A DNA stretch of 64,000 nucleotides, taken from a virus. Its lineage: Duplodnaviria > Heunggongvirae > Uroviricota > Caudoviricetes. The stretch lies in the IMG/VR virus record IMGVR_UViG_3300043467_001216. The stretch is one strand, 5' to 3'. Position numbers and translations under genes: made by a program. A model generated the notes under the pieces. That model searched no databases. It was not told the origin of the DNA and saw nothing but the letters and a program-made list of their open reading frames with translations. Positions 7,285 through 61,545 of the stretch are shown here, piece by piece; position 1 is the stretch's first letter, and each line of letters opens with the position of its first letter.

Positions 7285-8208
7285 ATGCAAACAAATTATT
7301 ACGACGTACTTGGAGTTAAAGAAAACTCAGACCAAGACACGATTAAAAAAGCTTATAGGTCTTTGGCGAAAAAACATCATCCAGATAAAGGTGGTAATGA
7401 TGAGATGTTTAAGAAAGTTTCTGAAGCTTATGATGTTTTAGGGGATGAAAATAAACGAAGACAATATGATACCCAAAAACAAAACCCATTTCATAATGCA
7501 AGAGGTGGTGGGAATGGATTTAATCCATTTGATGAAATGTTCAATATGTTTAATGGTGGTCGACAAAGACAGAGAACTGTTCCTGATAAAATAATTGATA
7601 TTTTAATAACACCTGTAGAATCCTATAATGCGGTTGATAAACATATTAAATATCAAAGAAAACATATGTGTGTTGATTGTCACGGTAATGGGGGTGATAG
7701 ACAACACTGTGGACATTGTAATGGTACTGGTGTGATAACACAACGAATTGGTACGGGAATGTTTATTCAAATGGTTCAATCGCATTGTAATGTTTGTAAT
7801 GGTGTTGGTTATACATATACTAGAGTTTGTGGGACTTGTAAAGGTTCTTGTACTACTGAAAAAATGGACAGTATTAGTGTTAAATTACCTCACGGAATTG
7901 ATGACGGTCAATTTTTGAAAGTTCAAGGGAGAGGTGATTTTAGTAATGGTATTTATGGTAATTTAATTATTAGAATTAAAGTTAAAAATGATAGTAATTT
8001 TGAGAAATTTGGGGATGATTTAATTTATAATAAATTTTTGAACTTAGATGAATTAAAAGTGGATTCGTTTGTAGTCCCACATCCTTCAGGTGACTTATCA
8101 ATAAAAATACCACCAGTATTTGATTCATCAATACCTTTAAGAGTTAAATCTAAAGGTTATAATAATGGTGAGTTGTATATTAAATTATATGTAAAGTTCA
8201 CACGTTAA
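7285..8208 (+). CDS. dnaJ: type I DnaJ/Hsp40 co-chaperone
   Basis: J domain with HPD (YYDVLGV...KKHHPDKGG); G/F-rich linker; four CxxCxGxG zinc-finger repeats ([32 protein letters not shown]); C-terminal domain. Confidence 0.9.
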
Positions 8209-8504: not shown

Positions 8505-9344
8505 ATGTTATCTTATATTGGTGGTAAAAGTAAAATTGGTAAATGGATAGTTCCATTCATACCTAAAGACATTGAAACGTATGTCGAACCATTTAGTGGT
8601 ATGTATTGGGTTTTCTTCAATATGGATTTGAAAGAGTATCCTAACCTAAAGAAAGTTGTTTACAACGACTTTAACCCACTAAATTATAACCTATTCAAGT
8701 GTGTTCAGAACCCCCAAGAGTTGTTGAAGGCAATCAATTCAATTGAGTGTCAACAATTCGGAGTTGAGGTAACACCACCACACTTAAAAGAACAATTTAT
8801 CAGCTTTCAGGCTGAAATTTTTAAGGAAGGTTTCAGCGTAGAACCTGGTGATTATGTGGTCGCGGCTAAGTATGTGTATGTGTTGACTCAGGTGTTCTCA
8901 GGTTCAAAACCTGAAACCTCATCATATATTGACTTGAAAGGTAAATACAAATCAAAGTATCTAACATTTAGAGATAAGTTAAGTAAACCTGATTGGGTAG
9001 AACATTTCTTAAAGATAACTCACGTTGAGAATATGGACTTTGCTGATGTAATAACTAAGTATGATGGTGAGAAAAGTTATTTCTATACTGACCCGCCATA
9101 TTGGAAGACTGAGAATTACTATTCAAATCACGACTTCGATAGAAACGACCACGAGAGATTGGCAAATACACTAAAAGGTATTCAAGGTAAGTTCTCATTA
9201 TCTTATTATGATTTTGAAATATTATCTGAGTGGTTTCCAAAAAATGAGTATATTTGGGAGAGTAAACTATTCGCCAAAGCGGCAGCAGCTAAAAAAGGTA
9301 AAACACAAACTATGGGTGAAGAGTTATTAATTATGAATTATTAA
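8505..9344 (+). CDS. DNA N6-adenine methyltransferase, D12 (Dam-like) class
   Basis: YIGGKSKI, EPFSGMYWVFF (SAM-binding) and YTDPPYW (DPPY catalytic motif). Confidence 0.85.
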   Translation: MLSYIGGKSKIGKWIVPFIPKDIETYVEPFSGMYWVFFNMDLKEYPNLKKVVYNDFNPLNYNLFKCVQNPQELLKAINSIECQQFGVEVTPPHLKEQFISFQAEIFKEGFSVEPGDYVVAAKYVYVLTQVFSGSKPETSSYIDLKGKYKSKYLTFRDKLSKPDWVEHFLKITHVENMDFADVITKYDGEKSYFYTDPPYWKTENYYSNHDFDRNDHERLANTLKGIQGKFSLSYYDFEILSEWFPKNEYIWESKLFAKAAAAKKGKTQTMGEELLIMNY

Positions 9345-9385: not shown

Positions 9386-10771
9386 ATGAAAATAACATCA
9401 GTTTTAAGGAACATATTATTAGAAGATTCACGATTTGAAAATTTATATACTAAATTTGTTGAACCTGCTCCGTCGAAAGACCCTGCTAAACCAAATAAAC
9501 CTAAACTTAAATTCGATACGTTAAAGCAATTTATATTTGCTGACCCTACGTCAAAGATGCCTGAGGATGTTGATGCTGAAGGTTTATCGTTAGCCGATAT
9601 TAGAAATTTAGGTAATAAGTTTAAAGTAGGTGCTTATACTCAATGGTTGTTGAAAAACTTCTTTAAACCGACTTTCCAAGGAGACCAAGCGAATGTTGAC
9701 CCATCAAGTCCTGAATATAAGGAAATGGTGAAGGAATTCAGACGTTTATTCCTTGAGGATTTGTTTAAGATGAATGATATTATCGGAAAGTTTGAACGTG
9801 TTAAACCATTAATACCGGCAGAACAACGTGATATTAATTCATATACACCGACAACGTTAACAAATTTAATTCTTAATTTACCTGAAGAATTAAAAGCTAA
9901 GATTCAAACTAAGGATGTAAAATCTCAGGCGAGAGAAGAAAGAAAGGCTAACAGATTCGCCCATCCAGGTGCTACAATTATGAAAGAGGGTACTAACTAT
10001 ACTTTAATTAAAATTGAAGGGACTGATACACCTCAGAAAGAGGCGGCACAGTGGTATGGTGGATTCTATGACTATATGAATGGTGAGTCACATTGGTGTA
10101 CTTCACCTCCGGGGTCTAACTACTTTATGACTTACGCATCGGCAGGTCCATTATATGTGATTATGGCTAACGATGATAAAGGACAGGTGGGTGCAAGAAC
10201 AGGACTTCCAACTGAAAGATACCAAATCAACTTCCCTAAAAACCAATTTATGGATAGAATGGACGGTAGATTTGATGTTGTTGAGAAATTCAATGGAGAC
10301 TTCGCTGAGTTTAAAGAAATCCTTAAACCTGAATTTGCAAAAGGATTCGTTATTCCAAATACTGATGAGGTTGAAATTACATATCCTGGAAGTTCTGCGG
10401 GTGTATTCATCGCATTATATGGATTTGATGATTTGATTAAATCATTACCAAAAACTATTAAACAGTTACACGTAAGTAATACTTCAAACACACCTGTTTA
10501 TTTAGATTTAAGTGATGCTATTGGTGAATTCACTGAATTAGATACGATATTATTACATAATGTTGTAAAAGAAATTCCTGAGTCAATCGGTAATCTTAGA
10601 AACTTAGATATATTGTCATTGACTGATAATAAAGAATTGAGAACATTACCAAAATCTATTCTTAATTTAGAAAATCTAACTTTCTTAGTGTTAACAGGTA
10701 GTAATGTTGATTTAGGTGATATGTCAGAGAACTTTTTTGAAACTGCTGACGGAGTTTATGCACTTGCTTAA
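9386..10771 (+). CDS. leucine-rich-repeat protein with PcfJ-like central motif
   Basis: C-terminal LRRs (IPESIGNLRNLDILSLTDNKELRTLPKSILNLENLTFLVL); central ESHWCTS..Y..GPLYVIM. Confidence 0.7.
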   Translation: MKITSVLRNILLEDSRFENLYTKFVEPAPSKDPAKPNKPKLKFDTLKQFIFADPTSKMPEDVDAEGLSLADIRNLGNKFKVGAYTQWLLKNFFKPTFQGDQANVDPSSPEYKEMVKEFRRLFLEDLFKMNDIIGKFERVKPLIPAEQRDINSYTPTTLTNLILNLPEELKAKIQTKDVKSQAREERKANRFAHPGATIMKEGTNYTLIKIEGTDTPQKEAAQWYGGFYDYMNGESHWCTSPPGSNYFMTYASAGPLYVIMANDDKGQVGARTGLPTERYQINFPKNQFMDRMDGRFDVVEKFNGDFAEFKEILKPEFAKGFVIPNTDEVEITYPGSSAGVFIALYGFDDLIKSLPKTIKQLHVSNTSNTPVYLDLSDAIGEFTELDTILLHNVVKEIPESIGNLRNLDILSLTDNKELRTLPKSILNLENLTFLVLTGSNVDLGDMSENFFETADGVYALA

Positions 10772-13772: not shown

Positions 13773-14119
13773 TACCAGAACATTGTATAAAATATTTTGA
13801 AGCGAAATATGAAATTTATCCCTCCAATTGTCAGGTGATAATGTCTGAGGAATTATTTAAAAAATTAGTTAGTCGTAGTGAATTACTTTGGTGTAGACAC
13901 TCAATAACAGGTGGTGTGGATAAAATGGAATCGTCATTACATTCTTTTCACGAAACAGGTATTTATATTTACTTAGATGAAATAAGGGCGAACCAAATCG
14001 GTGCGTCGACTAAAACAATAAATGAGTATAAAGTTTACTTTATGTATGAAATTAGTAAAAAACATATCGTTGACTTTACAATAAACCAAATAATAAAACA
14101 AAACAAAAATGGAAATTAG
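13769..14119 (+). CDS. hypothetical protein
   Basis: ATGA overlap with upstream gene. Confidence 0.6.
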   Translation: MIPEHCIKYFEAKYEIYPSNCQVIMSEELFKKLVSRSELLWCRHSITGGVDKMESSLHSFHETGIYIYLDEIRANQIGASTKTINEYKVYFMYEISKKHIVDFTINQIIKQNKNGN

Positions 14120-14432
14120 TAGTTCTGAATTACAAGAAAAAATTAACAAAGGTGAAAAATTAGTAGTTGACTTTTGGGCTGAGTGGTGTGGACCGTGTAG
14201 AATGCAAAAACCAATCTTCGAACAAGTTAGTCAGACAGCTATCGAAAACAAGTCAGAGGTGTCGTATTACACATTCAACGTCGAATCTGATAAAATATTC
14301 GCAGCGTCATTAGGTATTAGAAGTATTCCAACAATCAAATCATTTTCAAATGGTGGTGAGGTTACTACTAAAGTTGGTCTTATGGATGAATCACAATTAA
14401 AATCATTAGAGTCAATATTAATTAATGGGTAA
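14109..14432 (+). CDS. trxA: thioredoxin
   Basis: WAEWCGPCRMQKP active site; thioredoxin length. Confidence 0.9.
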   Translation: MEISSSELQEKINKGEKLVVDFWAEWCGPCRMQKPIFEQVSQTAIENKSEVSYYTFNVESDKIFAASLGIRSIPTIKSFSNGGEVTTKVGLMDESQLKSLESILING

Positions 14433-14712
14433 GTTATTAATTTTATATACGATGGACGGTTGTCCTTTCTGTCAAATGATGAAAGAGAAGTTAATTGAAT
14501 CTAACATCATTTATTATGAACGTGACATTGACGAGCATAAAGATGAGTATGACTTGTTTGTGGAAATTACGGAAAACGATTATGTTCCTGCGTTTATGAT
14601 AATAGAGGGTGATGATGAAAAACAACCAATTACATCATTGTACGCACCTGATAGGGATTTCAACGACTTAGATGAAGGTATTGAAATAATTAAAAACAAA
14701 ATGATTCTATAA
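14425..14712 (+). CDS. glutaredoxin/NrdH-like redoxin
   Basis: N-terminal CPFC motif; 95 aa. Confidence 0.75.
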   Translation: MGKLLILYTMDGCPFCQMMKEKLIESNIIYYERDIDEHKDEYDLFVEITENDYVPAFMIIEGDDEKQPITSLYAPDRDFNDLDEGIEIIKNKMIL

Positions 14713-17443: not shown

Positions 17444-18208
17444 ATGACTAAGAGTAGGAAAAATGATTTCATAATGGACACCGATTGGTTGTTTCAAGGA
17501 ATCATTGATGCGGAGCAAAAACAATATATCCTGTTAGATTATTTTCAAAAGTTAAATAAGGATTTTGATGAAATGAAAATATATCCAATGTTTATTGAGT
17601 TGTCATTACATTTGGGTAATATGCAAACATTGTTAACCCAAGACAAAATATTATATACCGAAAAGAAATTCACTACACCTGACGATGAATTATTGTTATC
17701 GGATTTAAAATTGAAAGAGATACCGGTATTAACTGATGAAGAAGTTGATGAGTATAAAAAGATTTTAAAACATTTCCAACCACAAATTCACGACTACTTC
17801 AACTTTGCAAAATCATTATGGACAATAGTATATGATTCTGTAACACTTAAAGTTGTTAAAAACGTTGAGAATATTGAAAAGAAGATTGGTTTTTTCTATA
17901 TTAAATACAATGAGAAAAACTACGTATGGAGATATGACAAAAAACGTGGATATAAATCACAACCTGAAGGTAGAACTGAATTAAAATTAATTTATAAAAC
18001 ATTTGATGATAATTTTGATGTGAATGAGATAATCTCGACACATTCAAAAACATATGATAAGAATAAAGAATCGGAAAGTCCGGTCTTTGAAGTTGTTTGT
18101 GATAATATATTTCCACTAAAAGAAACTGTTATTCCAATTGTGAAAAGAAAAATTTTAGCGTATATTAGCCAAACTAAAAAAGAGAAGAAACTAATAATGA
18201 TTGACTAA
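17444..18208 (+). CDS. hypothetical protein
   Basis: 254-aa ORF. Confidence 0.65.
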   Translation: MTKSRKNDFIMDTDWLFQGIIDAEQKQYILLDYFQKLNKDFDEMKIYPMFIELSLHLGNMQTLLTQDKILYTEKKFTTPDDELLLSDLKLKEIPVLTDEEVDEYKKILKHFQPQIHDYFNFAKSLWTIVYDSVTLKVVKNVENIEKKIGFFYIKYNEKNYVWRYDKKRGYKSQPEGRTELKLIYKTFDDNFDVNEIISTHSKTYDKNKESESPVFEVVCDNIFPLKETVIPIVKRKILAYISQTKKEKKLIMID

Positions 18209-18405
18209 TGAGCTTTCATAAAAGATATATTAATATCGACACAACAAAAGAATATTTAAACCGAGGGGATTTAGACGAACTATATAACGCTGACGCATAC
18301 TTCTTCAATGATGATTTGAGTTACGATGTATATAGGATGTATTTAGAGGAGTTGACTGATAAAGAAATCAAATTAAAACTAAATAACTATGGACAAAACA
18401 ATTAA
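18208..18405 (+). CDS. hypothetical protein
   Basis: TAATG coupling. Confidence 0.5.
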   Translation: MSFHKRYINIDTTKEYLNRGDLDELYNADAYFFNDDLSYDVYRMYLEELTDKEIKLKLNNYGQNN

Positions 18406-18577
18406 ATTATTACAGTCGAAACTTAGAAGACCAATTCACATTACCTACATTTCAGAACACATCTTGAAGAAAGATATTACTGAAACAAGAAAATTAGTAA
18501 CCAAACTTATGGAAGATGGTTATATGTTTGAAAGTGAAACATCTAAAGATTATTTTTATATTAAACCAAATGAGTAA
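18389..18577 (+). CDS. hypothetical protein
   Basis: 62-aa ORF overlapping neighbours. Confidence 0.5.
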   Translation: MDKTIKLLQSKLRRPIHITYISEHILKKDITETRKLVTKLMEDGYMFESETSKDYFYIKPNE

Positions 18578-18800
18578 AGAACACGTAAATCACCCAACAC
18601 ATTACGGGGGAGAAGGTAACCCTTACGAAGCAATCAAAGTGATTGATGCTTGGGAATTGGGTTTTAGTTTAGGTAATACTGTGAAGTATATCTCAAGAGC
18701 TGGTAAGAAAGAGTCTGACAAAGAATTACAAGACCTTAAAAAAGCAATGTGGTATCTTCAACACCACATCGAAGAGTTGGAGAAAAAACAATCTAATTAA
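18570..18800 (+). CDS. DUF3310 family protein
   Basis: HPTHYGG..PYEAIKVIDAWELGFSLGNTVKYISRAGKK...DL.KA.WYL is the DUF3310 pattern; start moved to ATG 18570. Confidence 0.7.
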   Translation: MSKEHVNHPTHYGGEGNPYEAIKVIDAWELGFSLGNTVKYISRAGKKESDKELQDLKKAMWYLQHHIEELEKKQSN

Positions 18801-18818
18801 TTATACAGAATAAAATAG

Positions 18819-18860
18819 TCTGGACTTATATTTATTAATAAAAATAAATTAAAGTTCAGA
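18819..18860 (+). promoter_or_regulatory. inverted repeat enclosing ATATTTATTAATAAA motif
   Basis: TCTGGACTT (18819-27) pairs with AAGTTCAGA (18852-60); motif at 18828-18842 sits in the loop; upstream of tail-fibre gene. Confidence 0.45.
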
Positions 18861-18870
18861 TTATTTTTAG

Positions 18871-20751
18871 ATGGCTAATCAAAAAGTCCCCCAATTACCC
18901 GTATTAACCGCTATCACAGGTAGTGATTTATTTTACGTTGTTGACGTTAGTGATATAACGGATGACCCAACGGGTAGTTCCAAACAGATTACAAGAGACG
19001 AAATATTAACAAGTGTTAATCAAATAGATTTTAACTTAACTGCCGTAACAACACACGAGGAAGGTCGAGTTTCTTGGAATGATGATATTAAATCATTAGA
19101 AATTGATACTGAAAACCCTGAAGTTCAAGTCCAAGTAGGACACGAAATGGTTATTAGAGTTAACAATCAAACAGGTTCTATTTTAACTAAAGGGACTGTT
19201 GTGTATATCAACGGTGCTCAAGGTCAAAGACCTACAGTGACTAAGGCGGATTATAGTGCTGATACGTCATCAGCGTCAGTTATTGGTTTAGTTGCAGCTG
19301 ACATAAATAATGGTGATAATGGTTATGTTATCACATCAGGAATTCTTGAAGGTGTCAACACAATTGATTATACGGCAGGAACATCATTATATTTGTTCAC
19401 AGGTGGGACGTATTCCTCAAATAAACCGCAAGCCCCTGACCACGATGTTCGTATTGGTAAAGTGGTTGTGTCAAACGCAACTACGGGTTCTATATATGTT
19501 AATGTTCAGAATGGTTATGAACTAGATGAATTGCACGACGTTAGAATCACAAGTGTGTCTGAGAATGATGTCTTGGTTCGTAGTACCTATAACGGTTCAC
19601 CTGTTTGGGTGAATACTAAAACAATTTCAGGTCTTACATATGTGCAGGCGACAACAATATCTGCAACGACATATCAAAATTTACCACCTGACTTATGGAC
19701 TCAGAATGGTAGTAGTATATACTATAATGGTGGGAATGTTGGTATTGGTCAAAGTAACCCAACTAGAAAGTTTGAGGTTGTAGATGGTGCTAGTTTAGCT
19801 TATTTTAACTTAACTGGTACAAGTGGACCAGCAGCTGTTATTAGTACTACAGACCTTACAAAATTAACTAGATTTATTGCAACTGATGGGACTAATTCAA
19901 TAAATATTGGTATTAGAACATCTGGTGAAACTGATAATCCTACTGTTGGTGGACAAGGTGATGCATTTATTTATGTTAATGCAAGTGCTAAGGGTTTAAG
20001 TATTGTTAATGCACCTTTTACAGGTATTAATAATGATTATATTAGATTATATGCGGGTTTACTTGCGACTCAAGGTATATCACATTTACACGTGCAAGGT
20101 TCTGGAACTACTAAAGGGTTTATCGGAATAAATAATGAAAATCCTATTGCACGACTACATGTAAGTGGTGATACACTCATAGATGGTGTTTTATCAGCGA
20201 CAACAATATCAGCAACAACCGCATCAATATCAGGTTCAGGTCAAAATGTTTTAACTGTTACAGGTTCAGGTAATAGTACCTCATCACCAATATTTAAAGT
20301 TATTGGTTCACAAGGAGAATTGTTTAGTGTTACTGATTCATTAACAGGTTTATTACAAAGTGTTAATAATATCTCAGGTTTACCAATTTGGCAAGTATAT
20401 TCTGATAATACCATATTAATGGGAACGTATTTAGCACCTTCGTTAAACACGACCGTTAGGGTATCATTAACTGCTGGAACTAATACTGTCTATTCAATAC
20501 CGACAAGTGCCTATACAGGTGGTTTCTTTGATTATACTGTGATTAGTAGTGGAGGTGCGGGAGCTAGAGCGGGAACTGTTATGTCTATATGGAGTGGTAC
20601 TACGGCTGAATACACTGATGTATCAACTAATGATATTGGTAATACATCGGGGATATCATTTTCAGTTGCGGTTTCCGGTGGTAATTCAGTGTTAAGTTGT
20701 TCCGCAACTACTACGGGTTGGATATTAAAAACTATAGTTAGAAGTATATGA
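18871..20751 (+). CDS. tail fibre protein
   Basis: 626 aa, S/T/G/N-rich beta-type sequence; N-terminus MANQKVPQLP.LTAITGSDLFYVVD typical of phage fibres; shares ISATTYQNLP motif with 22515 ORF. Confidence 0.7.
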   Translation: MANQKVPQLPVLTAITGSDLFYVVDVSDITDDPTGSSKQITRDEILTSVNQIDFNLTAVTTHEEGRVSWNDDIKSLEIDTENPEVQVQVGHEMVIRVNNQTGSILTKGTVVYINGAQGQRPTVTKADYSADTSSASVIGLVAADINNGDNGYVITSGILEGVNTIDYTAGTSLYLFTGGTYSSNKPQAPDHDVRIGKVVVSNATTGSIYVNVQNGYELDELHDVRITSVSENDVLVRSTYNGSPVWVNTKTISGLTYVQATTISATTYQNLPPDLWTQNGSSIYYNGGNVGIGQSNPTRKFEVVDGASLAYFNLTGTSGPAAVISTTDLTKLTRFIATDGTNSINIGIRTSGETDNPTVGGQGDAFIYVNASAKGLSIVNAPFTGINNDYIRLYAGLLATQGISHLHVQGSGTTKGFIGINNENPIARLHVSGDTLIDGVLSATTISATTASISGSGQNVLTVTGSGNSTSSPIFKVIGSQGELFSVTDSLTGLLQSVNNISGLPIWQVYSDNTILMGTYLAPSLNTTVRVSLTAGTNTVYSIPTSAYTGGFFDYTVISSGGAGARAGTVMSIWSGTTAEYTDVSTNDIGNTSGISFSVAVSGGNSVLSCSATTTGWILKTIVRSI

Positions 20752-21476
20752 GTACACATTATAAACCAAGGATTATTACTGATAATTTAATTTATTATGT
20801 TGACGGTGCTAATACCTCATCATACCCTGGAACAGGAACTATTTGTGATGATTTATCACGTCGTCAATTATTAGAACTGTCTTTAGTTAATGGGGTTGCA
20901 TTTGAAAATAATAATGGTGGTGTTTTTACATTTGATGGTGTTGATGACTTAATGTTATCTGATGTTACGATGAACGGTAAAATGACTAGTGGTATGACAT
21001 TTGATGTTTGGTTTAAACGAACTCAAGATATGAACGCATTTAATATGGTGGTTTCAAATCCGGTTCCTTATATTGCGTTTAGAGGTTCGGGTGCGGGTGT
21101 TAACTCTCAATATTTTTTATTTTCATTTTTAACTAGAATATCTTCAACTAATACGCAACGTTATTTATATTCTAATAATACGTTTAGTAATAATGTTTGG
21201 TATAATGTTGTTTGTACGTTATCTCAAAATACGACAACACAAGTGGTTGATGCTAAAATGTATGTTAATGGTGAATTAAACAATACTATAAGTGTTGGTT
21301 CGGCAACTGATAGTGTGTATCAACCCACTGCTGGGACTTTTTTTAGATTGGCGAATTACGCTCCAGCGGCATATCCGTTTAAAGGTAATATTTCGTCAGT
21401 TAAAATGTATGATAAATTACTAACGTCTGATGAAATTTTACAAAATTATAATACATTAAAAAATAGATTTAATTAA
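20748..21476 (+). CDS. LamG/concanavalin-A-like lectin domain protein
   Basis: FTFDGVDD, W...V and FKGNISSVKMYDKLLTSDEILQNY typical of LamG_3 domains; ATGA overlap with fibre gene. Confidence 0.7.
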   Translation: MSTHYKPRIITDNLIYYVDGANTSSYPGTGTICDDLSRRQLLELSLVNGVAFENNNGGVFTFDGVDDLMLSDVTMNGKMTSGMTFDVWFKRTQDMNAFNMVVSNPVPYIAFRGSGAGVNSQYFLFSFLTRISSTNTQRYLYSNNTFSNNVWYNVVCTLSQNTTTQVVDAKMYVNGELNNTISVGSATDSVYQPTAGTFFRLANYAPAAYPFKGNISSVKMYDKLLTSDEILQNYNTLKNRFN

Positions 21477-21501
21477 ATATAAAAAAAATAGTTAGAATTG
21501 T

Positions 21502-22185
21502 ATGAGTTCATTTTCAGGTCCAAAAATAGATATTAATAACCTTGTGTTGTATTTAGATGCGGGAAACTCTGATTCTTATGTTAGTGGTTCTACCACATGG
21601 TATGATTTAAGTGGTAATAATTATAATGGTACGTTAATTAATGGTACGGGTTTTAGTAGTGAAAAAAATGGTTGTATGACATTTGATGGTATTGACGATA
21701 TGGTTAGAACAAATTTTCAAACAATAACTGTAAATAGTAGTTTTGAGATATGGGCTAATAGAACTGAGAGTGTCAACGCATATAATATGATGGCTGGTAT
21801 GTATCTACCTTATTTTGCTATGAATAGTGGTAATACTTTACACTTTTCTAATTCAATAGGTGGTGTTCAAAGAAGTGCTTTTTCTTCACCATCAGGAACT
21901 TTAATGGATAATACTTGGTATTGTTTTCATTTTGTAAATTCATATGATGGTGTTAATACAACAATGAAATCGTATATTAACGGCACTTTAGTTCGTAGTA
22001 TTACTAATACAGGTCAAACGATTACAACAACTTTTCTTCCTCTAGTTATTGGTGGTTGGAGGTCTAATTTACCAACTGATTATCCATTTAAAGGTAAAAT
22101 ATCAATTGTTAAGGTTTATAATAAAGAATTAACACAAGATGAAATTAATCAAAACTATAATGCAACAAAAGGTAGATATTTATAA
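21502..22185 (+). CDS. LamG/concanavalin-A-like lectin domain protein (paralog)
   Basis: MTFDGIDDMV and FKGKISIVKVYNKELTQDEINQNY; paralog of 20748-21476. Confidence 0.7.
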   Translation: MSSFSGPKIDINNLVLYLDAGNSDSYVSGSTTWYDLSGNNYNGTLINGTGFSSEKNGCMTFDGIDDMVRTNFQTITVNSSFEIWANRTESVNAYNMMAGMYLPYFAMNSGNTLHFSNSIGGVQRSAFSSPSGTLMDNTWYCFHFVNSYDGVNTTMKSYINGTLVRSITNTGQTITTTFLPLVIGGWRSNLPTDYPFKGKISIVKVYNKELTQDEINQNYNATKGRYL

Positions 22186-22187
22186 TT

Positions 22188-22457
22188 ATGGAAACAATAT
22201 TACAAGATTACGAAAACAGAAAATTTATGATATTTAACGTATCTGAATTGGGCTTGATTGATTTTACACAAGTTTATCAAACATCAATTGATACTGTTAG
22301 AAAATCAGTTGATGGAACTAAAACATTGGTTAAATGGGATTCGGATGGAATACCATCATCAGTTAATCAACTAACAACCAAAGAAGGTCCATATACTTAT
22401 GATGAAATAATCGTTATTTTAAATACTTCTGAATGGAGTGGGACAATACCTGAATAA
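22188..22457 (+). CDS. hypothetical protein
   Basis: 89-aa ORF in structural module. Confidence 0.55.
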   Translation: METILQDYENRKFMIFNVSELGLIDFTQVYQTSIDTVRKSVDGTKTLVKWDSDGIPSSVNQLTTKEGPYTYDEIIVILNTSEWSGTIPE

Positions 22458-22514
22458 ATTAATAATTGATGGTATTTATACATAAATAAACCTGGATAGG
22501 GAAAGGTAAAAATT

Positions 22515-22985
22515 ATGTCAAACGAATTTAATATAAAGAATGGGTTTATCTCAAACTCAGATTCTAGAGTGATTGGTGGTTTCACCGCTAACACAATATC
22601 AGCAACAACTTATCAAAACTTACCTGTTGACCCCAATTATTATGTAACTGCGTTCACGTATAGTAATAACGTATTTACGGTTAAGCAAACAGGACAATCT
22701 GATTTAACGGCAACAATAAATTCTGTAACAGGGTGGACTGTTAATGGTGTTTTAACTGTTACGGGTGATACATCATTACAGGGTGTTACTGCAAATACCA
22801 TATCGGCAACAACAATATCAGGTGGGACTATGGTTATAACAACAACACCAACTACTGATAATACGTTAACTCAAGTATTATCAAGAGACCCAGTAACGGG
22901 AACTGTCGAATTAGTCGATACAACATCATTCCCATTCAACTATGGGTTGGCAAACGCAATAATGACAGGAACTTTTTTAACATAA
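22515..22985 (+). CDS. short tail-fibre-related protein
   Basis: ANTISATTYQNLP and ANTISATTISGG repeats shared with 18871 ORF. Confidence 0.6.
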   Translation: MSNEFNIKNGFISNSDSRVIGGFTANTISATTYQNLPVDPNYYVTAFTYSNNVFTVKQTGQSDLTATINSVTGWTVNGVLTVTGDTSLQGVTANTISATTISGGTMVITTTPTTDNTLTQVLSRDPVTGTVELVDTTSFPFNYGLANAIMTGTFLT

Positions 22986-23011
22986 AAATAAAAATAAAAA
23001 TAAAGTAATAT

Positions 23012-23434
23012 ATGGCAAATACATCATTAAATACACAACCAATTTATACGGCATCCGCTGATACTCAATGGATTGGAGGGGCTTTAACTGCGAACACAAC
23101 TAAAGACTTAACATCAGGAACTGCTTATTTGGCGTTTACTGCGTCAGCGAATGGGGGGTATGTTCAAAGATTAAGATTAAGACCATTAGGGACTAACGTC
23201 GCATCATTGGCTAGAATATTTATTAATAATGGTGATGTTACAGGAACAACCGCGAATAATATTCTTTGGGATGAGATATCATTACCGGCAACAACAGTTT
23301 CTGAGACATCGGCTTTACCTACTTATGAAATTCCATTAAATTTTGCATTACCCGCAGGTTACAGATTGTTTGTGACTATTGCTACGGGTGTGGCCGCAGG
23401 TTTTGCGATAACAGTTATAGGTGGAAAATATTAA
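23012..23434 (+). CDS. hypothetical structural protein
   Basis: 140-aa ORF in fibre module. Confidence 0.6.
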   Translation: MANTSLNTQPIYTASADTQWIGGALTANTTKDLTSGTAYLAFTASANGGYVQRLRLRPLGTNVASLARIFINNGDVTGTTANNILWDEISLPATTVSETSALPTYEIPLNFALPAGYRLFVTIATGVAAGFAITVIGGKY

Positions 23435-23437
23435 GAT

Positions 23438-23617
23438 ATGAACGAGTATATATTGTGGGAGTTTGAATACGGATACACAGGTCAAGTGTATCAGGAAATC
23501 AATAACGGACAAGTTATTAGATATTGTGATTTGGATGGGAATACTTTAACACTTGAAGGTGCTTACGGGTATAATTTAATAAATGTAACACCAGAAAGAC
23601 CAAGTTGGGCGTTATAA
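23438..23617 (+). CDS. small hypothetical protein
   Basis: 59-aa ORF below cutoff; fills the gap exactly between neighbours. Confidence 0.4.
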   Translation: MNEYILWEFEYGYTGQVYQEINNGQVIRYCDLDGNTLTLEGAYGYNLINVTPERPSWAL

Positions 23618-23618
23618 T

Positions 23619-24539
23619 ATGATAGATACTTTTAACATAAATGACGGTAGTTTAAACAACCAAGTGTTCAACTATAATGGGAATACAGGGTGGCAAGTAT
23701 GGAACAAACCACCTAAATGTAATTTAGTGAATTTCTTTTTAGTTGGTGGTGGTGCCGGTGGTCAAGGTGGTATTATTAATTCTGCCGCCAATCGTAATGG
23801 AGGTGCGGGAGGTGGTTCTGCCGCCTTTTCATATATAACCGTTCCAGCATTTGCAATTCCCGATACTTTATATATATTAGTGGCAAGTGGTGGAACAGGA
23901 GGTGCGTCAAGTGGTGGTGCCGGTGGTCAAGGAAGTCTTAGTTATGTCTGTTCTGTACCTGATACGTCAACTGTTAATAATATATTAATGAGGAGTGGTT
24001 CGGCGAATGCGGGTGTTACAACAACAACAACTGCGGGTGCGGCAATTACTGTTGCGGATATTTTATTAGCTGAGGCTGCGTTTATTTCAGGATATGCGGG
24101 TCAAACAGGTGGTGCGGGTGGTGTAACAAGTACTCCTGCGGTTGATATAACACCAACAGGTATTCCATTCACATCAGGTGCGGGTGGTGCTGGATGTGGT
24201 TCGACAGGAACGTTAGGTGTTGCGGGGGATATCGTAGGTATTTTAGATTTCCCAATTATCTCAGGTGGTACAAATACATCATCGGCAGGTGCGACTGCGG
24301 GTTCGGGAAATAACGGATTTTCGACAAGAGAAAGTTTTACTAGCCAAAATTATAAATATCCTATGTTCTTTACAGGAGGTGCCGGTGGTGGTGCAGCCTC
24401 TAACGCAACAGGTGTTGGAGGACGTGGTGGTGATGGAGCCTATGGTTGTGGTGGAGGAGGTGGTGGTGCCGGTGGAAACACAACTGCGGGACGTGGTGGT
24501 GATGGTGGTCACGGATTAGTTATAATTACAGTTACATAA
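23619..24539 (+). CDS. glycine-rich domain protein (paralog 1)
   Basis: MIDTFNI...WQVWNKP..C..V.FFLVGGGAGGQGG...GGAGGGSA...L.ILV..GGTGG...GGDGGHGLVIIT; Gly_rich-type pattern. Confidence 0.75.
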   Translation: MIDTFNINDGSLNNQVFNYNGNTGWQVWNKPPKCNLVNFFLVGGGAGGQGGIINSAANRNGGAGGGSAAFSYITVPAFAIPDTLYILVASGGTGGASSGGAGGQGSLSYVCSVPDTSTVNNILMRSGSANAGVTTTTTAGAAITVADILLAEAAFISGYAGQTGGAGGVTSTPAVDITPTGIPFTSGAGGAGCGSTGTLGVAGDIVGILDFPIISGGTNTSSAGATAGSGNNGFSTRESFTSQNYKYPMFFTGGAGGGAASNATGVGGRGGDGAYGCGGGGGGAGGNTTAGRGGDGGHGLVIITVT

Positions 24540-24542
24540 AAT

Positions 24543-25487
24543 ATGATAGATACTTTTCACATATCAGATGGTAGTGTCAATAGACAAGTGTTCTATGCGA
24601 CAGGACCGAATACCTTCCAAACTTGGAATAAACCCCAAAACTGTAAATTCGTTTACTTCGTATTAATCGGAGGTGGCGGAGGTGGCGGAGGTGGTCAAAG
24701 TGGTGGAACAGGAACCTCTCGTAGAGGTGGTGGTTCAGGTGGTTCAGGTGGATTAACTAAAGGTATGTTTCCCTCTTCAATTATTCCTGATAGATTATAT
24801 ATTCAAGTTGGTTCAGGTGGAACTGCTGGTGTTGGTGGTACGACTAACAGTGATGGTGGTACTGCTGGTATATCATATGTTATGGTTACACCTGACACTA
24901 CTGAAACTGCACAAAATATACTACTACAAAGTAGTTTGGCGGCTGCGGGTGGTGGTCGTTCAGGTTTAAATGGTGGTGCTCTTGGTGCTGCTGCAACGGC
25001 TTGGGTATTCACTAATAATATTTTTTATAAATTTGGGTTGGTTGATACTTATGCGGGTCAAGCGGGTGTTTTAGGTCAAACAACGGCATTACCAACTAAC
25101 TTAACAATTAGTGGTATTGTAAGTGGTGGTGGTCCAGGTGCGGGTCAAAACGGTGCAACTGCACAAGAGGGTGGTTCAGTTGTTGGTGGTGGGTCAATAC
25201 CTACAATGACAGGAGGACCAGCGGGTGGTTCAGCGACATCAACAACACCCGGAGGTAATGGTAGTGGTGGATATATGACATTTACCCCTAACACACTTGG
25301 ATACACAACAGAACCATTGATATTTATCGGTGGTGCTGGTGGTGGTTCATCAGATGGTGGACCCGGAGGTTCAGGAGCTGGCGGAGCCTATGGTTGTGGT
25401 GGTGGAGGAGGTGGAGCCGGAATAACTAACCAAGGTGGTAATGGTGGTAAAGGTGGTGACGGAATAGTCATAATAACGTGGTGGTAA
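24543..25487 (+). CDS. glycine-rich domain protein (paralog 2)
   Basis: same N- and C-terminal frame as paralog 1; 3-nt spacer. Confidence 0.75.
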   Translation: MIDTFHISDGSVNRQVFYATGPNTFQTWNKPQNCKFVYFVLIGGGGGGGGGQSGGTGTSRRGGGSGGSGGLTKGMFPSSIIPDRLYIQVGSGGTAGVGGTTNSDGGTAGISYVMVTPDTTETAQNILLQSSLAAAGGGRSGLNGGALGAAATAWVFTNNIFYKFGLVDTYAGQAGVLGQTTALPTNLTISGIVSGGGPGAGQNGATAQEGGSVVGGGSIPTMTGGPAGGSATSTTPGGNGSGGYMTFTPNTLGYTTEPLIFIGGAGGGSSDGGPGGSGAGGAYGCGGGGGGAGITNQGGNGGKGGDGIVIITWW

Positions 25488-25496
25488 TATTATAAA

Positions 25497-26459
25497 ATGA
25501 TAGATACATTCAATTTACCTGGAAAGGAAAGGTATACACAAATTTTTACAGTAAACTCAAGTGGGTCAACAGGTTGGGAAACTTGGAATAAACCATCAAA
25601 CATTTCTTACATCCATATTTTATGTATTGGTGGTGGAGGAGGTGGAGGAGGGGCTCGTGGTAGTTCGCTGAATACCGCAACAGGAGGAGGTGGTGGAGGT
25701 TCTGCAGCTCACTCAATTGGATTATTTCCTGCGGTTTTATTACCTGATACATTATTCGTTCAGGTGGGTAAAGGAGGTGCTAGTGGTGTTGGTGGTGCTA
25801 AGGGTGTTAACGGAACTGATGGTGGTTCGGGAGAACATTCTTATGTGTCAGTTATACCATCAACGGGAACTACTGCGGTATTGATGAAAAACGGTACTGC
25901 GGGTGCTGATGGTGGTAATGGTGGACAAAGTTCAGTTCAAGGTGCTGCGGGAACTGCGGGAACAACTTGGACTTATAACACAACATTTATATTTCCCCAA
26001 TTAGGACAGATATCACCATTTGCTGGTCAAAATGGTGGTATCGGTGGTTCAACAGGTGGTGGTAATGGTGGTTCGATAACTATTACAGGTCCAACAACAG
26101 GTGGTGGTGGTGGAGGTGGAACAACAAGTGGTGGCTCATCAGGTGGTGGTGGTTCAATTACGGGTGTTGGGATAATACCAACTATTGTTGGTGGAACTGC
26201 GAATTCATTAACGGCTAGTAATGGTGCGGGTGGTTATGGTATGAATTTATTAACAACTGAATCAAGTTCACCAAGTCCTTTATTTTTTACGGGAGCTGCG
26301 GGTGGTGGTGGTGCTGGTCCAAATGCTGATAGAGAAGGTGGTGACGGAGGTCACGCTGCTTACGGTTCAGGAGGTGGAGGTGGAGGTGCATCTTATAATG
26401 GTAAAGGTGGTGACGGAGGTAAAGGTGGTGATGGTGTTGTAATTATTACTTGTTGGTAG
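25497..26459 (+). CDS. glycine-rich domain protein (paralog 3)
   Basis: same frame as paralogs 1 and 2; 9-nt spacer. Confidence 0.75.
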   Translation: MIDTFNLPGKERYTQIFTVNSSGSTGWETWNKPSNISYIHILCIGGGGGGGGARGSSLNTATGGGGGGSAAHSIGLFPAVLLPDTLFVQVGKGGASGVGGAKGVNGTDGGSGEHSYVSVIPSTGTTAVLMKNGTAGADGGNGGQSSVQGAAGTAGTTWTYNTTFIFPQLGQISPFAGQNGGIGGSTGGGNGGSITITGPTTGGGGGGGTTSGGSSGGGGSITGVGIIPTIVGGTANSLTASNGAGGYGMNLLTTESSSPSPLFFTGAAGGGGAGPNADREGGDGGHAAYGSGGGGGGASYNGKGGDGGKGGDGVVIITCW

Positions 26460-26493
26460 TTGACATTTCAATTTAAAAAGTCTAAAATTATTT

Positions 26494-27357
26494 ATGGAAA
26501 ATTATATAGGAAAAATTATAAATGGTGATTGTGTTGATGTTATGTCAGAAATGCCAATAAACTCAATTGACTTAATTGTAACGTCACCCCCATACGGAGT
26601 TGGGATTGCCTATGATGTTCACGATGATGATATGTATATTGATGAATATTTGAAATTTACAACCAAATGGTTAACACAAGCATATCAGATATTAAAAGAT
26701 GATGGAAGGATTGCGATAAACATTCCTTATGAAATTAATAGACAGGACAAAGGTGGAAGAATTTTCTTTTGTTCTGAGGTTTATCAGGTAATGAAAAGAA
26801 TTGGATTTAAATTCTTTGGTATTGTTGACCTTGAAGAAGATTCTCCTCATCGTAGTAAAACTACGGCTTGGGGTAGTTGGATGTCACCTTCAAGTCCTTA
26901 CATATATAATCCAAAAGAATGTGTTATATTAGCCTACAAACACAAACATATTAAAACAGTTAAAGGTGAACCACAATGGAAAGGAATGCCAACTGAGATT
27001 GAACAAGAAGATGGGACAGTTAAGAAAAAAGTTGTCTATGATGAAATGGATAAGAAAGAGTTTATGGAATTGGTGTTTGGTCAGTGGAAATATTTTGCTG
27101 ATACTAAATCGTTAACAAAAGCGACTTTCTCTATGGATATCCCAACTAAGGCGATTAAAATATTGTCATATAAGAATGACGTAATATTGGACCCATTTGC
27201 GGGTTCAGGAACAAGTTTGGTTGCTGCTGAAACATTGGATAGACGATGGGTGGGTATTGAATTATCACCAAATTATGCTGAGATAGCTTGGAAACGAGTC
27301 CAAGGATTTGTGGACCAAAAAAAACAACAAGAATTAGAATTCGAAAAGGGGGAATAA
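26494..27357 (+). CDS. DNA methyltransferase, beta-class N4-cytosine/N6-adenine
   Basis: DLIVTSPPYG (motif IV) is N-terminal; DPFAGSGTSLVAAE (motif I) is C-terminal; SPPY favours m4C but is not decisive. Confidence 0.85.
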   Translation: MENYIGKIINGDCVDVMSEMPINSIDLIVTSPPYGVGIAYDVHDDDMYIDEYLKFTTKWLTQAYQILKDDGRIAINIPYEINRQDKGGRIFFCSEVYQVMKRIGFKFFGIVDLEEDSPHRSKTTAWGSWMSPSSPYIYNPKECVILAYKHKHIKTVKGEPQWKGMPTEIEQEDGTVKKKVVYDEMDKKEFMELVFGQWKYFADTKSLTKATFSMDIPTKAIKILSYKNDVILDPFAGSGTSLVAAETLDRRWVGIELSPNYAEIAWKRVQGFVDQKKQQELEFEKGE

Positions 27358-27373
27358 AAATCCCCCTTTTTTT
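27348..27373 (+). terminator. rho-independent terminator
   Basis: GGGGGA-ataaaaa-TCCCCC followed by T7; overlaps the stop codon. Confidence 0.8.
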
Positions 27374-27382
27374 GTTTTCATA

Positions 27383-27397
27383 ATATTTATAATAAAA
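27383..27397 (+). promoter_or_regulatory. ATATTTAT-type upstream motif
   Basis: ATATTTATAATAAAA 6 nt before ATG 27404. Confidence 0.4.
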
Positions 27398-27403
27398 AAT
27401 GTT

Positions 27404-28477
27404 ATGAGCCATTATATTATTAATAAACACGAATTTAAAGACGTTGTTAATAAAATTTACTTAGAAGAACAAAAAAACATTTTAAATGAGAAATGGTCTA
27501 AATTAAGTAAAGGGGAAAAAATATTCGTATTAGAATTTCTAAAAGTCATATATCCTGATAAATCTAAATTAATACAAGAATCTAAATGGTATAATACTTT
27601 AGGTGATATTGCCGGTATTTTTGACCCTACAGGTGTGATTGATGTTATCAACGGTATTAGTTATTGGAGACAAGATGATAAGTTATTTGCGTTACTGTCT
27701 TGGATTTCTGTAGTACCATTAATCGGTGACGTGATTGGTAAACCTGTTATTGGTGCATTAAAATTAGGTGGTGATACTGCTAAAATGTTTAAAGCCGCAG
27801 CTCTTGCGGGTGATGCTGCTAAAGTTGCTGAAACTGCAACTAAATCAGGTGGAGCTATTGGTAAATTTGTTAGTACTTCACCTACTTGGGGTGTTAAATT
27901 ATTAGAAATTTTAAAAAATGCGGGAAACAAAGTTCCAATACTAAGACGAATGTTTAAGTTAATTGAGGAATATGTTTCAGTGTTTGTAACCGCTAGTAAA
28001 GAAATGAAACTTGGTGCTGAGGTAACCAAAGGTATCGGTCTTGCGGAAAAGGAAACGTTAAAAAATACTTTTAGAGGGTTTAGAGATTTTGGTGGGTTTA
28101 AAAATAAATACCTCAAGTACATTTCATCTAAGGACGTATCACTCTGGAAAAAATTCACTGCGGGAGCACCACGAATATTTGGTGGTAATCCGGCTACTAG
28201 GTCATTAATGAGAAGAACTAAATGGTATTTAGGGTTTCTTGATTTCTTAGGTATTGGTGATTTTAAAACAACACCTGATGAATTAATGATTAAGTATCCG
28301 AATATAGAACAACAAGTTAATAAGTATAATCAAACTGAAAAGGCTCAACAAACATGGAATCAAGATTTTGGTTCAGGTGGTGATACACAAACCCAACAAA
28401 CAGATGGTGGGTTAAATACTCAAGATATTATGGGTATAAACCCGTTAGAAGTTTTTTTAAATCCTTTGTTTAAATAA
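27404..28477 (+). CDS. hypothetical protein
   Basis: 357-aa ORF; antisense 165-aa ORF rejected. Confidence 0.65.
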   Translation: MSHYIINKHEFKDVVNKIYLEEQKNILNEKWSKLSKGEKIFVLEFLKVIYPDKSKLIQESKWYNTLGDIAGIFDPTGVIDVINGISYWRQDDKLFALLSWISVVPLIGDVIGKPVIGALKLGGDTAKMFKAAALAGDAAKVAETATKSGGAIGKFVSTSPTWGVKLLEILKNAGNKVPILRRMFKLIEEYVSVFVTASKEMKLGAEVTKGIGLAEKETLKNTFRGFRDFGGFKNKYLKYISSKDVSLWKKFTAGAPRIFGGNPATRSLMRRTKWYLGFLDFLGIGDFKTTPDELMIKYPNIEQQVNKYNQTEKAQQTWNQDFGSGGDTQTQQTDGGLNTQDIMGINPLEVFLNPLFK

Positions 28478-29922
28478 TGAAAAAAATAGTAAGATTAAAT
28501 GAGAATCAAATGACCGATGTCATTAAACGAATGATAATGGAGTCAGGGATTCGTGATATTAATAAAATCGCTGAGAGATATCGAAAAGCTAAAATTTATT
28601 TTCATCAAGATTTGGATGGTGTAACAACTGCGATTGCGATGAAAGAATATTTAAAACAATATGGGATTGAAACCGTTGATTGTGAGGTAATACAATACGG
28701 TGATAAAGAATGGTCGATTAAAAAACCTGAAGGTAGTGGTGATGTTATGCCTGTATTGGTTGACTTTGCTCACGGTAAACCAATGTTTGTTATTCACACA
28801 GACCACCACGACACACAAGCGGGTGTTGAATCAGGGACTGCAACAAACTTTAAATCATCACGTTCAAATGTTGAAACTATATCACAATCAATATCACCAA
28901 AAGAATTATTCCCAAGTGATGATTTGTTATTAATCTCGACGGTTGACTCGGCGAATTTTGCACCAAACGATATCACAGTTGATGAGGTTAATAATTACAT
29001 CTTCAACTTAGATAAAGAAAAATCAGTTCCAAAAAACAAAATGGCTCTTGGTTTGACGATTAATAAATTATTATTGGCGTTTAAAAACAAACCTGATTTC
29101 TTAGAAGAATTGGTTATGGAATCAACACCATCTTTACTTAATATCTTAACTAACATTAAGAGAATTATGAAAGAGAAGGGGTTTGCGTCAGTTGATGTTC
29201 TACAACAAAATAGAGACAACTACGTTCAATCAATGAAGAATCATCCTAACGTTAAAGTTATGGATAATATCATTGTTCAATACGGTGGTGGTAATATGAT
29301 GAAACCTGGTTCTTATGATAGGTATACACCATTTAAAAACAATCCTGAAGCTGACTTTATAGTTATTGCTTGGCCGTTGGGGTTAGTTCAAGCGTCTTGT
29401 AATCCATTCAAAAAAGAGAGAGCATTGAAAGGTGTTAACTTAGGTGAGGTTAAAGATGAGGTGTTATCTAAATGGGAAACACAATTAAAACAAAAAGAAA
29501 TTCCATTATCTACAATCAAATGGGTATCTGAGAACAAATTAAATACTGAGTCAGTTGGTTTTACGTTTAAAGATTTTGAAGCATTGTATGGTGAAAAATT
29601 TAGTAAGATTAACAACGGACCTGAATTATTAAACATTATTAGTAATATAATGCAAAGACATTATAATAGTTTAAGTGATAAACAAAAATCTATTATGGAG
29701 AAAGTAACTGTTAGTGCTTGGGATATAATTCAAGCTAATAGTGGTGGACACAAATGTATTACGAATATATCAGGTCTTAGTTATTTAGGTAAGAACCCTC
29801 AGAAATTATCAGGAGGTGGAAGTTACCAAAAAAGTGAAGATGATTCACCATCGGTTAAGTTTACAAAAATGATTCAAAACGAATTTGTAAGAGTATTACA
29901 ACAAAAAATACAAGAAGGTTAA
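28477..29922 (+). CDS. DHH/DHHA1 family phosphoesterase (NrnA/RecJ-like)
   Basis: HQDLDGVTTA, VLVDF, VIHTDHHD (DHH motif) and C-terminal NSGGHKC (GGGH-like DHHA1 motif). Confidence 0.75.
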   Translation: MKKIVRLNENQMTDVIKRMIMESGIRDINKIAERYRKAKIYFHQDLDGVTTAIAMKEYLKQYGIETVDCEVIQYGDKEWSIKKPEGSGDVMPVLVDFAHGKPMFVIHTDHHDTQAGVESGTATNFKSSRSNVETISQSISPKELFPSDDLLLISTVDSANFAPNDITVDEVNNYIFNLDKEKSVPKNKMALGLTINKLLLAFKNKPDFLEELVMESTPSLLNILTNIKRIMKEKGFASVDVLQQNRDNYVQSMKNHPNVKVMDNIIVQYGGGNMMKPGSYDRYTPFKNNPEADFIVIAWPLGLVQASCNPFKKERALKGVNLGEVKDEVLSKWETQLKQKEIPLSTIKWVSENKLNTESVGFTFKDFEALYGEKFSKINNGPELLNIISNIMQRHYNSLSDKQKSIMEKVTVSAWDIIQANSGGHKCITNISGLSYLGKNPQKLSGGGSYQKSEDDSPSVKFTKMIQNEFVRVLQQKIQEG

Positions 29923-30307: not shown

Positions 30308-30742
30308 ATGAAATCGAGAGTGAATATAGTTAACAAGAAAGTTAAGTTTGAATACTTTTTCGTTGAGACATTTGTCGTTGGGGTTAAACTACAGGGTTCT
30401 GAGGTTAAGTCAATCAGTGACTCAAAAGTTTCAATGACTGATACGTATTGTTACTTTAAGAATGGTGAGTTATATGTTAAAGGGTTAAACATTGCTAGTT
30501 CTAATGTGTCATACGCTCACGAACCTATGAGGGAACGTAAATTGTTAATGAAGAAGAAAGAATTGCGTAAACTTGAGAACGAATTAATTAATGGGTTAAC
30601 GATTGTTCCGTATAGATTGTATCGTAATGAGACCGGGTTGATTAAGATGGAGATTGTATTAGCCAAAGGTAAGAAGTTGTGGGATAAGAGAGATTCGATT
30701 AAAGAACGAGATATAAATAGAGAATTAAAACGAGGTCTATGA
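30308..30742 (+). CDS. smpB: SsrA-binding protein SmpB
   Basis: full-length similarity to bacterial SmpB as recalled: NKK.KFEYF..E.F..G..LQGSEVKS, RKLLM...EL.KL and AKGKKLWDKRDSIKERD tail. Confidence 0.9.
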   Translation: MKSRVNIVNKKVKFEYFFVETFVVGVKLQGSEVKSISDSKVSMTDTYCYFKNGELYVKGLNIASSNVSYAHEPMRERKLLMKKKELRKLENELINGLTIVPYRLYRNETGLIKMEIVLAKGKKLWDKRDSIKERDINRELKRGL

Positions 30743-61461: not shown

Positions 61462-61531
61462 AGCGGAGTAGTGTAATTGGTAACATATTGGATTGTCTCC
61501 TTTGATGTGGGTTCGAGTCCCATCGCCGCAA
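61462..61531 (+). tRNA. tRNA-like RNA 7 (70 nt; poor anticodon stem)
   Basis: D arm GTGT-AATTGGTA-ACAT; T arm GTGGG-TTCGAGT-CCCAT; acceptor has two mismatches; the anticodon region TTGGA-TTGTCTC-CTTTG pairs poorly. Confidence 0.45.
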
Positions 61532-61545
61532 CTAAAATTTAAATT

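Follow-up and report, generated by a model that had tools for sequence, protein, structure and literature searches.

Three tandem glycine-rich genes of a probable huge phage as predicted accessory adhesins of the gp33 brush kind

Three glycine-rich genes, here called G1, G2 and G3, lie back to back at the end of a fibre gene cassette in the IMG/VR virus record IMGVR_UViG_3300043467_001216 (Caudoviricetes), of which we analysed a stretch of 64,000 nucleotides (nt), the window. All three proteins belong to an existing Pfam family, and a structural homolog of theirs has been solved at the tip of a phage tail, the mycobacteriophage Bxb1 'tail wing brush' gp33; they are a known kind of protein. Our preferred reading, at a probability of roughly 65%, is that the three genes are expressed together and that G1-G3 serve as accessory adhesin subunits, of the same brush kind as gp33, on the distal fibre, where they would contact the host envelope.

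The three open reading frames (ORFs) encode 306, 314 and 320 amino acids (aa) and are separated by 3 and 9 nt, exactly where a first-pass annotation of this DNA, made from the sequence alone, had placed them. Each protein starts with the residues MIDTF, and common to all three are a W..WNKP motif, a hydrophobic strand running into a poly-glycine run, and a C-terminal AYG.GGGGGGA...GG.GG.G.VIIT frame; the shared N- and C-terminal frames that the annotation described are seen in the alignment, at ~44% pairwise identity. Its claim of strong central divergence holds as well: in 20-residue windows the fraction of residues identical in all three falls to 0.05-0.30 at ~131-260, against 0.20-0.40 over residues 1-140 and 0.35-0.65 over 251-320. 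Glycine accounts for 24.5-30.6% of residues, with GGT as the main codon, and the genes have a guanine-cytosine (GC) content of 45% versus ~31% for the window. The 'many long shadow ORFs' mentioned in the annotation are weakly true at best, since the region has 17 off-frame stretches of 50 codons or more without a stop (the longest has 90), which with the three genes make 20, slightly above a window-wide mean of 13.7 and maximum of 18 per equal-sized tile; we set these off-frame ORFs aside as compositional by-products of GGT-rich coding sequence. The starts of G1, G2 and G3 (23605-23625, 24535-24550 and 25485-25505) share the A/T-rich context TA(T/A)AAT ATG ATA GA, no Shine-Dalgarno motif was found at these three sites, and the first 57 nt around the starts of G1 and G2 are 81% identical.

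Membership of the family is clear. G1, G2 and G3 all pass the curated gathering threshold of Pfam PF21722 (Gly_rich_2, glycine-rich domain; 24.3 bits, whole-protein score) with near full-length coverage of the profile, and most homologs carry a precomputed PF21722 assignment. A large protein database held 388 homologs of the glycine-rich family (best E = 1e-105), and among the 120 of them listed nearly all are ~300 aa long, annotated as 'hypothetical protein' at most, on contigs of up to 194 kilobases (kb). With a profile as query, a set of 1.84 billion representative proteins yielded 6,001 matches at E <= 0.001 and 1,163 at E <= 1e-30, the 6,001 being representatives of 50%-identity clusters. 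Because full-length homologs run into the hundreds, we take G1-G3 to be real genes and not chance ORFs. Matches to PHROG families were weak and partial, falling on 'minor tail protein' families with phrog_863, 'tail fiber assembly', as the best (E = 7e-7 to 8e-4), and no cassette protein matched NCBIfam. BLASTN and TBLASTN with the region and with G3 as queries gave no match among 50,697 deposited phages; this is probably an effect of the low-complexity filter, since a later hidden Markov model (HMM) search picked up gp25 of the cultured phage RcBaka as a full-length member.

The AlphaFold2 model of G3, built on a 73-sequence alignment, is confident, with a mean predicted local distance difference test score (pLDDT) of 92 and a predicted template modelling score (pTM) of 0.89. 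Regular strands are few in this model, and long stretches lack regular secondary structure, fitting polyglycine-II helices. The overall fold is shared with Bxb1 gp33 (PDB 9d93 chain Q) over the whole length of the protein, and Foldseek with the model gave the same ranking of structural matches, the closest being Bxb1 gp33 and gp29 and cyanophage Pam3 gp24, all three of which were built into cryo-electron microscopy (cryo-EM) maps of virions or fibres. Two of the checks that the annotation had proposed, an HMM search and structure prediction, have in this way led to PF21722 for all three and to the brush fold for G3. The window proteins differ from gp33 in several respects: they are 40-50 aa longer, and the multiple alignment shows that the shorter gp33 has the C-terminal GGDG-hydrophobic strand in common with them and is without two central segments; the extra segments include a conserved AGQxGG element. 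Bxb1, a 50-kb actinophage, has one such gene, where the window, from an AT-rich and probably huge phage, has three tandem paralogs. Two small genes stand ahead of the brush gene in both, and the 59-aa ORF p59 of the window parallels Bxb1 gene 32 (63 aa). In Bxb1 the arm gp31 is seated on the wing base gp30, and gp33 is bound to gp31 (PMC12646305). BLASTP and HMM searches detected no homologs of gp30 or gp31 in the cassette, nor was a carboxypeptidase domain, as in gp30 (a D-Ala-D-Ala carboxypeptidase), found there.

Other glycine-rich systems resemble G1-G3 less closely. The Pam3 tail fibre gp24 (PDB 7ypx, 7yfw) is only 15% identical in the structural alignment; it docks to the baseplate through a long N-terminal alpha-helical trimerisation shaft and requires the chaperone gp25, whereas G1-G3, judged by the secondary structure of the model, have no shaft like this one, which precedes a TNF-like domain and a glycine-rich domain. 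The glycine-rich fibre tip of Pam3 is a trimer, the glycine-rich protein was detected in virions, the chaperone gp25 has another fold, and in Pam3 and S16, where conserved glycine motifs go with variable tips, the distal loops of the polyglycine domain have been proposed to bind receptors (PMC9608196). The adhesin gp38 of Salmonella phage S16 and T2-type phages follows the same concept, with conserved glycine-rich motifs forming polyglycine-II helices and hypervariable receptor-binding loops; its polyglycine sandwich on a beta-helix, its N-terminal gp37-docking domain and a structural match to 6F45 were not found for G1-G3. The glycine-rich domain of ALK/LTK (PDB 7lrz, 7nx3), the ligand-binding ectodomain of a eukaryotic receptor kinase, is a solved structure that resembles the G3 model. 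Its Pfam family, which we take to be Gly_rich (PF12810), is not among the matches: no Pfam family besides PF21722 matched at E <= 0.1, and at the sequence level a profile search of PDB chains gave chance matches only. In the recent literature, domains of the 'polyglycine-rich' or 'brush' type are regarded as candidate anti-receptors that recur in mycobacteriophages and in some Gram-negative phages.

The brush genes have a conserved partner. The gene for p140, a predicted jelly-roll protein, and that for p59 directly precede G1, and p140 is highly conserved, with 845 metagenomic homologs (72-99% identical among the 120 listed) and no Pfam family. When we searched for related loci, patterns of glycine runs swamped the glycine-rich alignment, which gave 4 confirmed loci; the p140 alignment gave 40, all on viral contigs, and in addition one Flavobacteriaceae metagenome-assembled genome contig (L063; L numbers denote loci). 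In each of the 37 loci that have 3.4 kb or more of downstream sequence, glycine-rich genes directly follow p140, as three copies in 28, two in 7 and one in 2, and never as more than three; many of these loci are near-duplicates, and by our count there are ~25 distinct architectures, 19 of them three-copy. p59 is 47-78% identical in L003, L005, L015 and L017; some relatives (high-GC or single-copy) lack it, and in these the brush gene abuts the p140 gene. Cultured phages also carry the pair: in Rhodobacter capsulatus siphophages of the RcC cluster, represented by RcBaka (41 kb, 64% GC; PMC8601537), gp24 is 54% identical to p140 and is followed by gp25, a full-length member of the glycine-rich family (E = 2e-55 by HMM search, 37-40% identity to G1-G3). 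Both are annotated 'hypothetical protein' and are the last tail-module genes before holin and endolysin; the gene order is like that of the window, with a single glycine-rich copy and no p59. Pseudanabaena phage Pam2 has a weaker p140 homolog after a gene annotated as tail fibre, and there the gene next to it is not glycine-rich and looks ConA-like from its motifs. This arrangement suggests that p140 is a general fibre-associated adaptor, for now a candidate. In L017 (17092-19130) the p140 and triple-brush cassette lies ~6 kb upstream of genes matching CrAss_Ring_1, CrAss_Ring_2 and PHROG virion structural proteins, a context that makes the module common to very different phage backbones. At 69% GC, L058 (the same as L011; IMG/VR contig 3300035670_001131) has a p140 homolog and three brush genes without p59.

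The cassette spans 18871-26459 (7.6 kb) and ends with G1-G3 (Table 1). Its first gene product, p626, matched nothing in Pfam, PHROG or PDB; over the first ~55 aa it shares 71-76% identity with the N-terminal ends of single proteins that fill the same slot in L003 (2411 aa) and L005 (973 aa). p156 corresponds, at 48-88% identity, to repeats inside these large proteins and to their very C-terminal end, and the same-slot proteins of L015 and L005 match PHROG tail-fibre families (1e-173 and 3e-17, respectively). A DNA repeat encoding ATTISATT is common to p626 and p156 (at 19635, 20184 and 22574). Two ConA-like (Laminin_G_3) genes and an 89-aa ORF with no Pfam or PHROG match lie between the two, and the fibre gene appears, from these comparisons, to be split or mosaic in the window (18871-22985). 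Since p626 and p156 match the fibre proteins of relatives, the name 'fibre module' is justified, and the picture given in the annotation, glycine-rich domain proteins beside a phage fibre and closing its module, fits both the PF21722 matches and the split fibre genes upstream.

Table 1. Coordinates of the glycine-rich genes, the fibre cassette and other annotated features of the window.
Feature	Position	Strand	Remarks
G1, Gly_rich_2 'brush' paralog 1	23619..24539	+	306 aa; PF21722 33.3 bits, profile positions 3-224/226; position-1 orthologous clade
G2, Gly_rich_2 'brush' paralog 2	24543..25487	+	314 aa; PF21722 36.0 bits, profile 4-225; position-2 clade
G3, Gly_rich_2 'brush' paralog 3	25497..26459	+	320 aa; PF21722 40.0 bits, profile 3-217
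p626, N-terminal part of apparently split tail-fibre gene	18871..20751	+	N-terminus shared with large proteins of relatives
Laminin_G_3 / ConA-like lectin-fold protein	20748..21476	+	242 aa; PF13385 E = 2.4e-18; PHROG 'virion structural protein' families
Second Laminin_G_3 / ConA-like protein	21502..22185	+	227 aa; PF13385 E = 2e-17; PHROG 8510 'virion structural protein'
p89, small ORF in fibre cassette	22188..22457	+	ORF only
p156, fibre repeat and fibre C-terminal piece	22515..22985	+	sequence match to large fibre proteins of relatives
p140, highly conserved jelly-roll protein, candidate brush adaptor	23012..23434	+	140 aa
p59, small conserved ORF between p140 and G1	23438..23617	+	59 aa; called as gene in L001
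Amidase_2	992-1606
Protein with dockerin/EF-hand-like calcium-binding motif	3162-4898		578 aa
DnaJ-like chaperone	7285-8208
Dam-like MethyltransfD12 DNA methyltransferase	8505-9344
Weak leucine-rich-repeat match	9386-10771		below Pfam's cut-off
Thioredoxin and glutaredoxin genes	14109-14712		adjacent
N6_N4_Mtase DNA methyltransferase	26494-27357		directly after brush genes; 90-92% identical in relatives
DHH-like protein	28477-29922		481 aa; matches uncultured huge-phage genomes of 635-735 kb (LR745206, LR756502, LR756501, LR756503)
SmpB homolog	30308-30742		PF01668

We can now sketch how such proteins might work. Each brush protein would consist of a small beta-sandwich core, put together from the conserved strands at the N-terminus and the VIIT strand at the C-terminus; the conserved glycine runs would project from this core as a polyglycine-II helix bundle, as suggested by the structural match to solved brush and ALK-type domains; the variable segments between the runs would sit, putatively, at the finger tips. 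G1-G3 would be co-produced and jointly mounted on a tail fibre or appendage, in its distal part, since they have the same orientation, almost no spacers, and a place directly after the fibre gene set and p140/p59. Attachment might be through the shared N-terminal MxDxF motif and/or p140, and the proteins would then serve as accessory adhesins whose contacts with the host envelope are multivalent and of low affinity.

Several points weigh against this picture. The route through p140 is a guess, because p140 has no similarity to gp31 (no BLASTP alignment, and HMM searches were negative) and its model, with a pLDDT of 70, matches only the generic jelly-roll fold, with no link to the Bxb1 arm. At the sequence level the tie to gp33 is short: hhalign of the family profile gives a probability of 91.8% (E = 7e-7) restricted to 70 N-terminal columns, BLASTP of G3 reaches an insignificant E = 0.025 on the glycine-rich C-terminal stretch, and hmmsearch of gp33 with the HMM of the window family was not significant. 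No tape-measure, baseplate or sheath gene adjoins the cassette, which is an island among non-structural genes. Finally, genes 30-35 are missing from Hami1, a natural relative of Bxb1 (PMC12646305), so the Bxb1 wing is probably dispensable, and the contribution of brush proteins to infection may be modest.

How old is the triplet, and does its order matter? In neighbour-joining trees, which carry no support values and are indicative only, copies 1, 2 and 3 form position-specific clades across the window, L025, L028, L029, L037, L038, L041 and L048; the two-copy loci L032 and L033 keep types 2 and 3, and L015 and L017 have two type-2-like copies and one type 3. In other lineages the copies pair by position (L049/L050, L052/L061) or cluster within the locus (L044, L053, L057, L058), which for L058 could mean that the genes were triplicated independently, that gene conversion took place, or that composition produced an artefact. 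Compared with the copies of the window, those in the same position in the nearest other loci are 64-69% identical. Because these orthologs are closer than the paralogs (~44%), the sequences indicate a triplet that is old, ordered and stable in the window's lineage, and not a fast-changing host-range set. The annotation had expected comparison of copy number among relatives to be informative, and the number does vary from one to three, but most loci have three and the order is stable.

A tentative alternative, attractive though a minority reading, is that the three paralogs are obligate partners: carried by a trimeric fibre or by a p140 adaptor, they would contribute one copy each to a pseudo-threefold heterotrimeric brush or fill three fixed sites, with a homotrimer in single-copy phages. 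The limit of three copies in the 37 loci speaks for such an arrangement, as do the position-specific clades and conserved order in the window's lineage and in the L049/L050 and L052/L061 pairs, the N-terminal motif common to all three paralogs, the trimeric glycine-rich tip of Pam3, and the single copy in the cultured siphophage RcBaka; the 3-9 nt spacers, and the overlapping ORFs of L017, are compatible with coupled expression. But two-copy loci occur, the monomer folds confidently alone, and the support is thinned by the near-duplicate loci and the unsupported trees, while clustering within L044, L053, L057 and L058 could be gene conversion or composition bias and not independent routes to three. 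Along the same lines, we speculate that p140 and up to three brush genes, in some cases with p59, might form a portable adhesin module across phages, the cap reflecting a heterotrimeric brush on a trimeric jelly-roll adaptor, a proposal we hold to be doubtful at present. Among the carriers of the p140-brush cassette are AT-rich, probably huge phages, phages whose ring genes are of the crAss type, and siphophage-like genomes of 64-69% GC. We know of no described phage receptor-binding tip built as a heteromeric polyglycine brush with one subunit per paralog.

The annotation itself had read the set as alternative receptor-binding tips, that is, as paralogs acting independently on different host surface molecules to broaden or switch host range. 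Divergence concentrated in the central inter-glycine segments between conserved termini, a copy number of 1 to 3 among relatives, and the receptor-binding role proposed for distal polyglycine loops in Pam3 and S16 would all fit. We nevertheless regard this as unlikely, because the set does not turn over: the same-position orthologs are kept across diverged genomes, and no invertase, diversity-generating retroelement or similar switching element is annotated in the neighbourhood, so that all three are probably made at once. It is very improbable that G1-G3 are instead non-virion proteins, such as fibre assembly factors like the chaperone T4 gp38, or have another non-structural role, as the label of phrog_863 and the non-structural surroundings of the cassette might suggest, given that the PHROG matches are weak and partial and others read 'minor tail protein', that the closest structural relatives were built into virion or fibre maps, and that in Pam3 it is the glycine-rich protein, and not the differently folded chaperone, that is found in virions.

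The surroundings of the cassette bear on the carrier. Upstream lie amidase, DnaJ-like, methyltransferase, DUF932, thioredoxin and glutaredoxin genes, and downstream methyltransferase, DHH-like, SmpB and Band_7 genes. The phage is probably a huge phage, because the 481-aa DHH-like protein matches genomes of that size class (Table 1) and proteins of the window also occur on contigs of the 0.2-1 megabase class; in the huge-phage records that match the DHH-like protein, the cassette is not beside that gene. The Amidase_2, calcium-motif, DnaJ-like, leucine-rich-repeat-like and thioredoxin/glutaredoxin genes make up an auxiliary set typical of large phages. ARAGORN found no transfer-messenger RNA in the window, its sole RNA gene being a tRNA-Thr (TGT) at 61462-61532. 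The one strong terminator-like hairpin in the scanned 18200-27500 region (27343-27371) follows the N6_N4_Mtase gene, and promoter and terminator scans were otherwise uninformative. The start context of G1-G3 without a Shine-Dalgarno motif, together with the single Flavobacteriaceae contig found with p140, hints at a host among the Bacteroidota.

What, then, does the brush assignment offer? It gives three 'hypothetical' genes, and a metagenomic family of 6,001 representatives, a concrete and structure-backed annotation as probable accessory adhesins of the tail or fibre, of the brush kind to which gp33 belongs. The linkage of p140 to brush genes, the triplet as the modal state, and the occurrence in a probable huge phage were previously undescribed; their value is one of annotation and would not surprise a specialist. 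RcBaka gp24 and gp25 provide a cultured, tractable system that carries the module, and the 'three, never more' pattern is a modest clue to stoichiometry. The brush fold, hitherto mainly associated with mycobacteriophages, Pam3 and S16, occurs widely among AT-rich aquatic phages, in tight linkage there with the uncharacterised p140.

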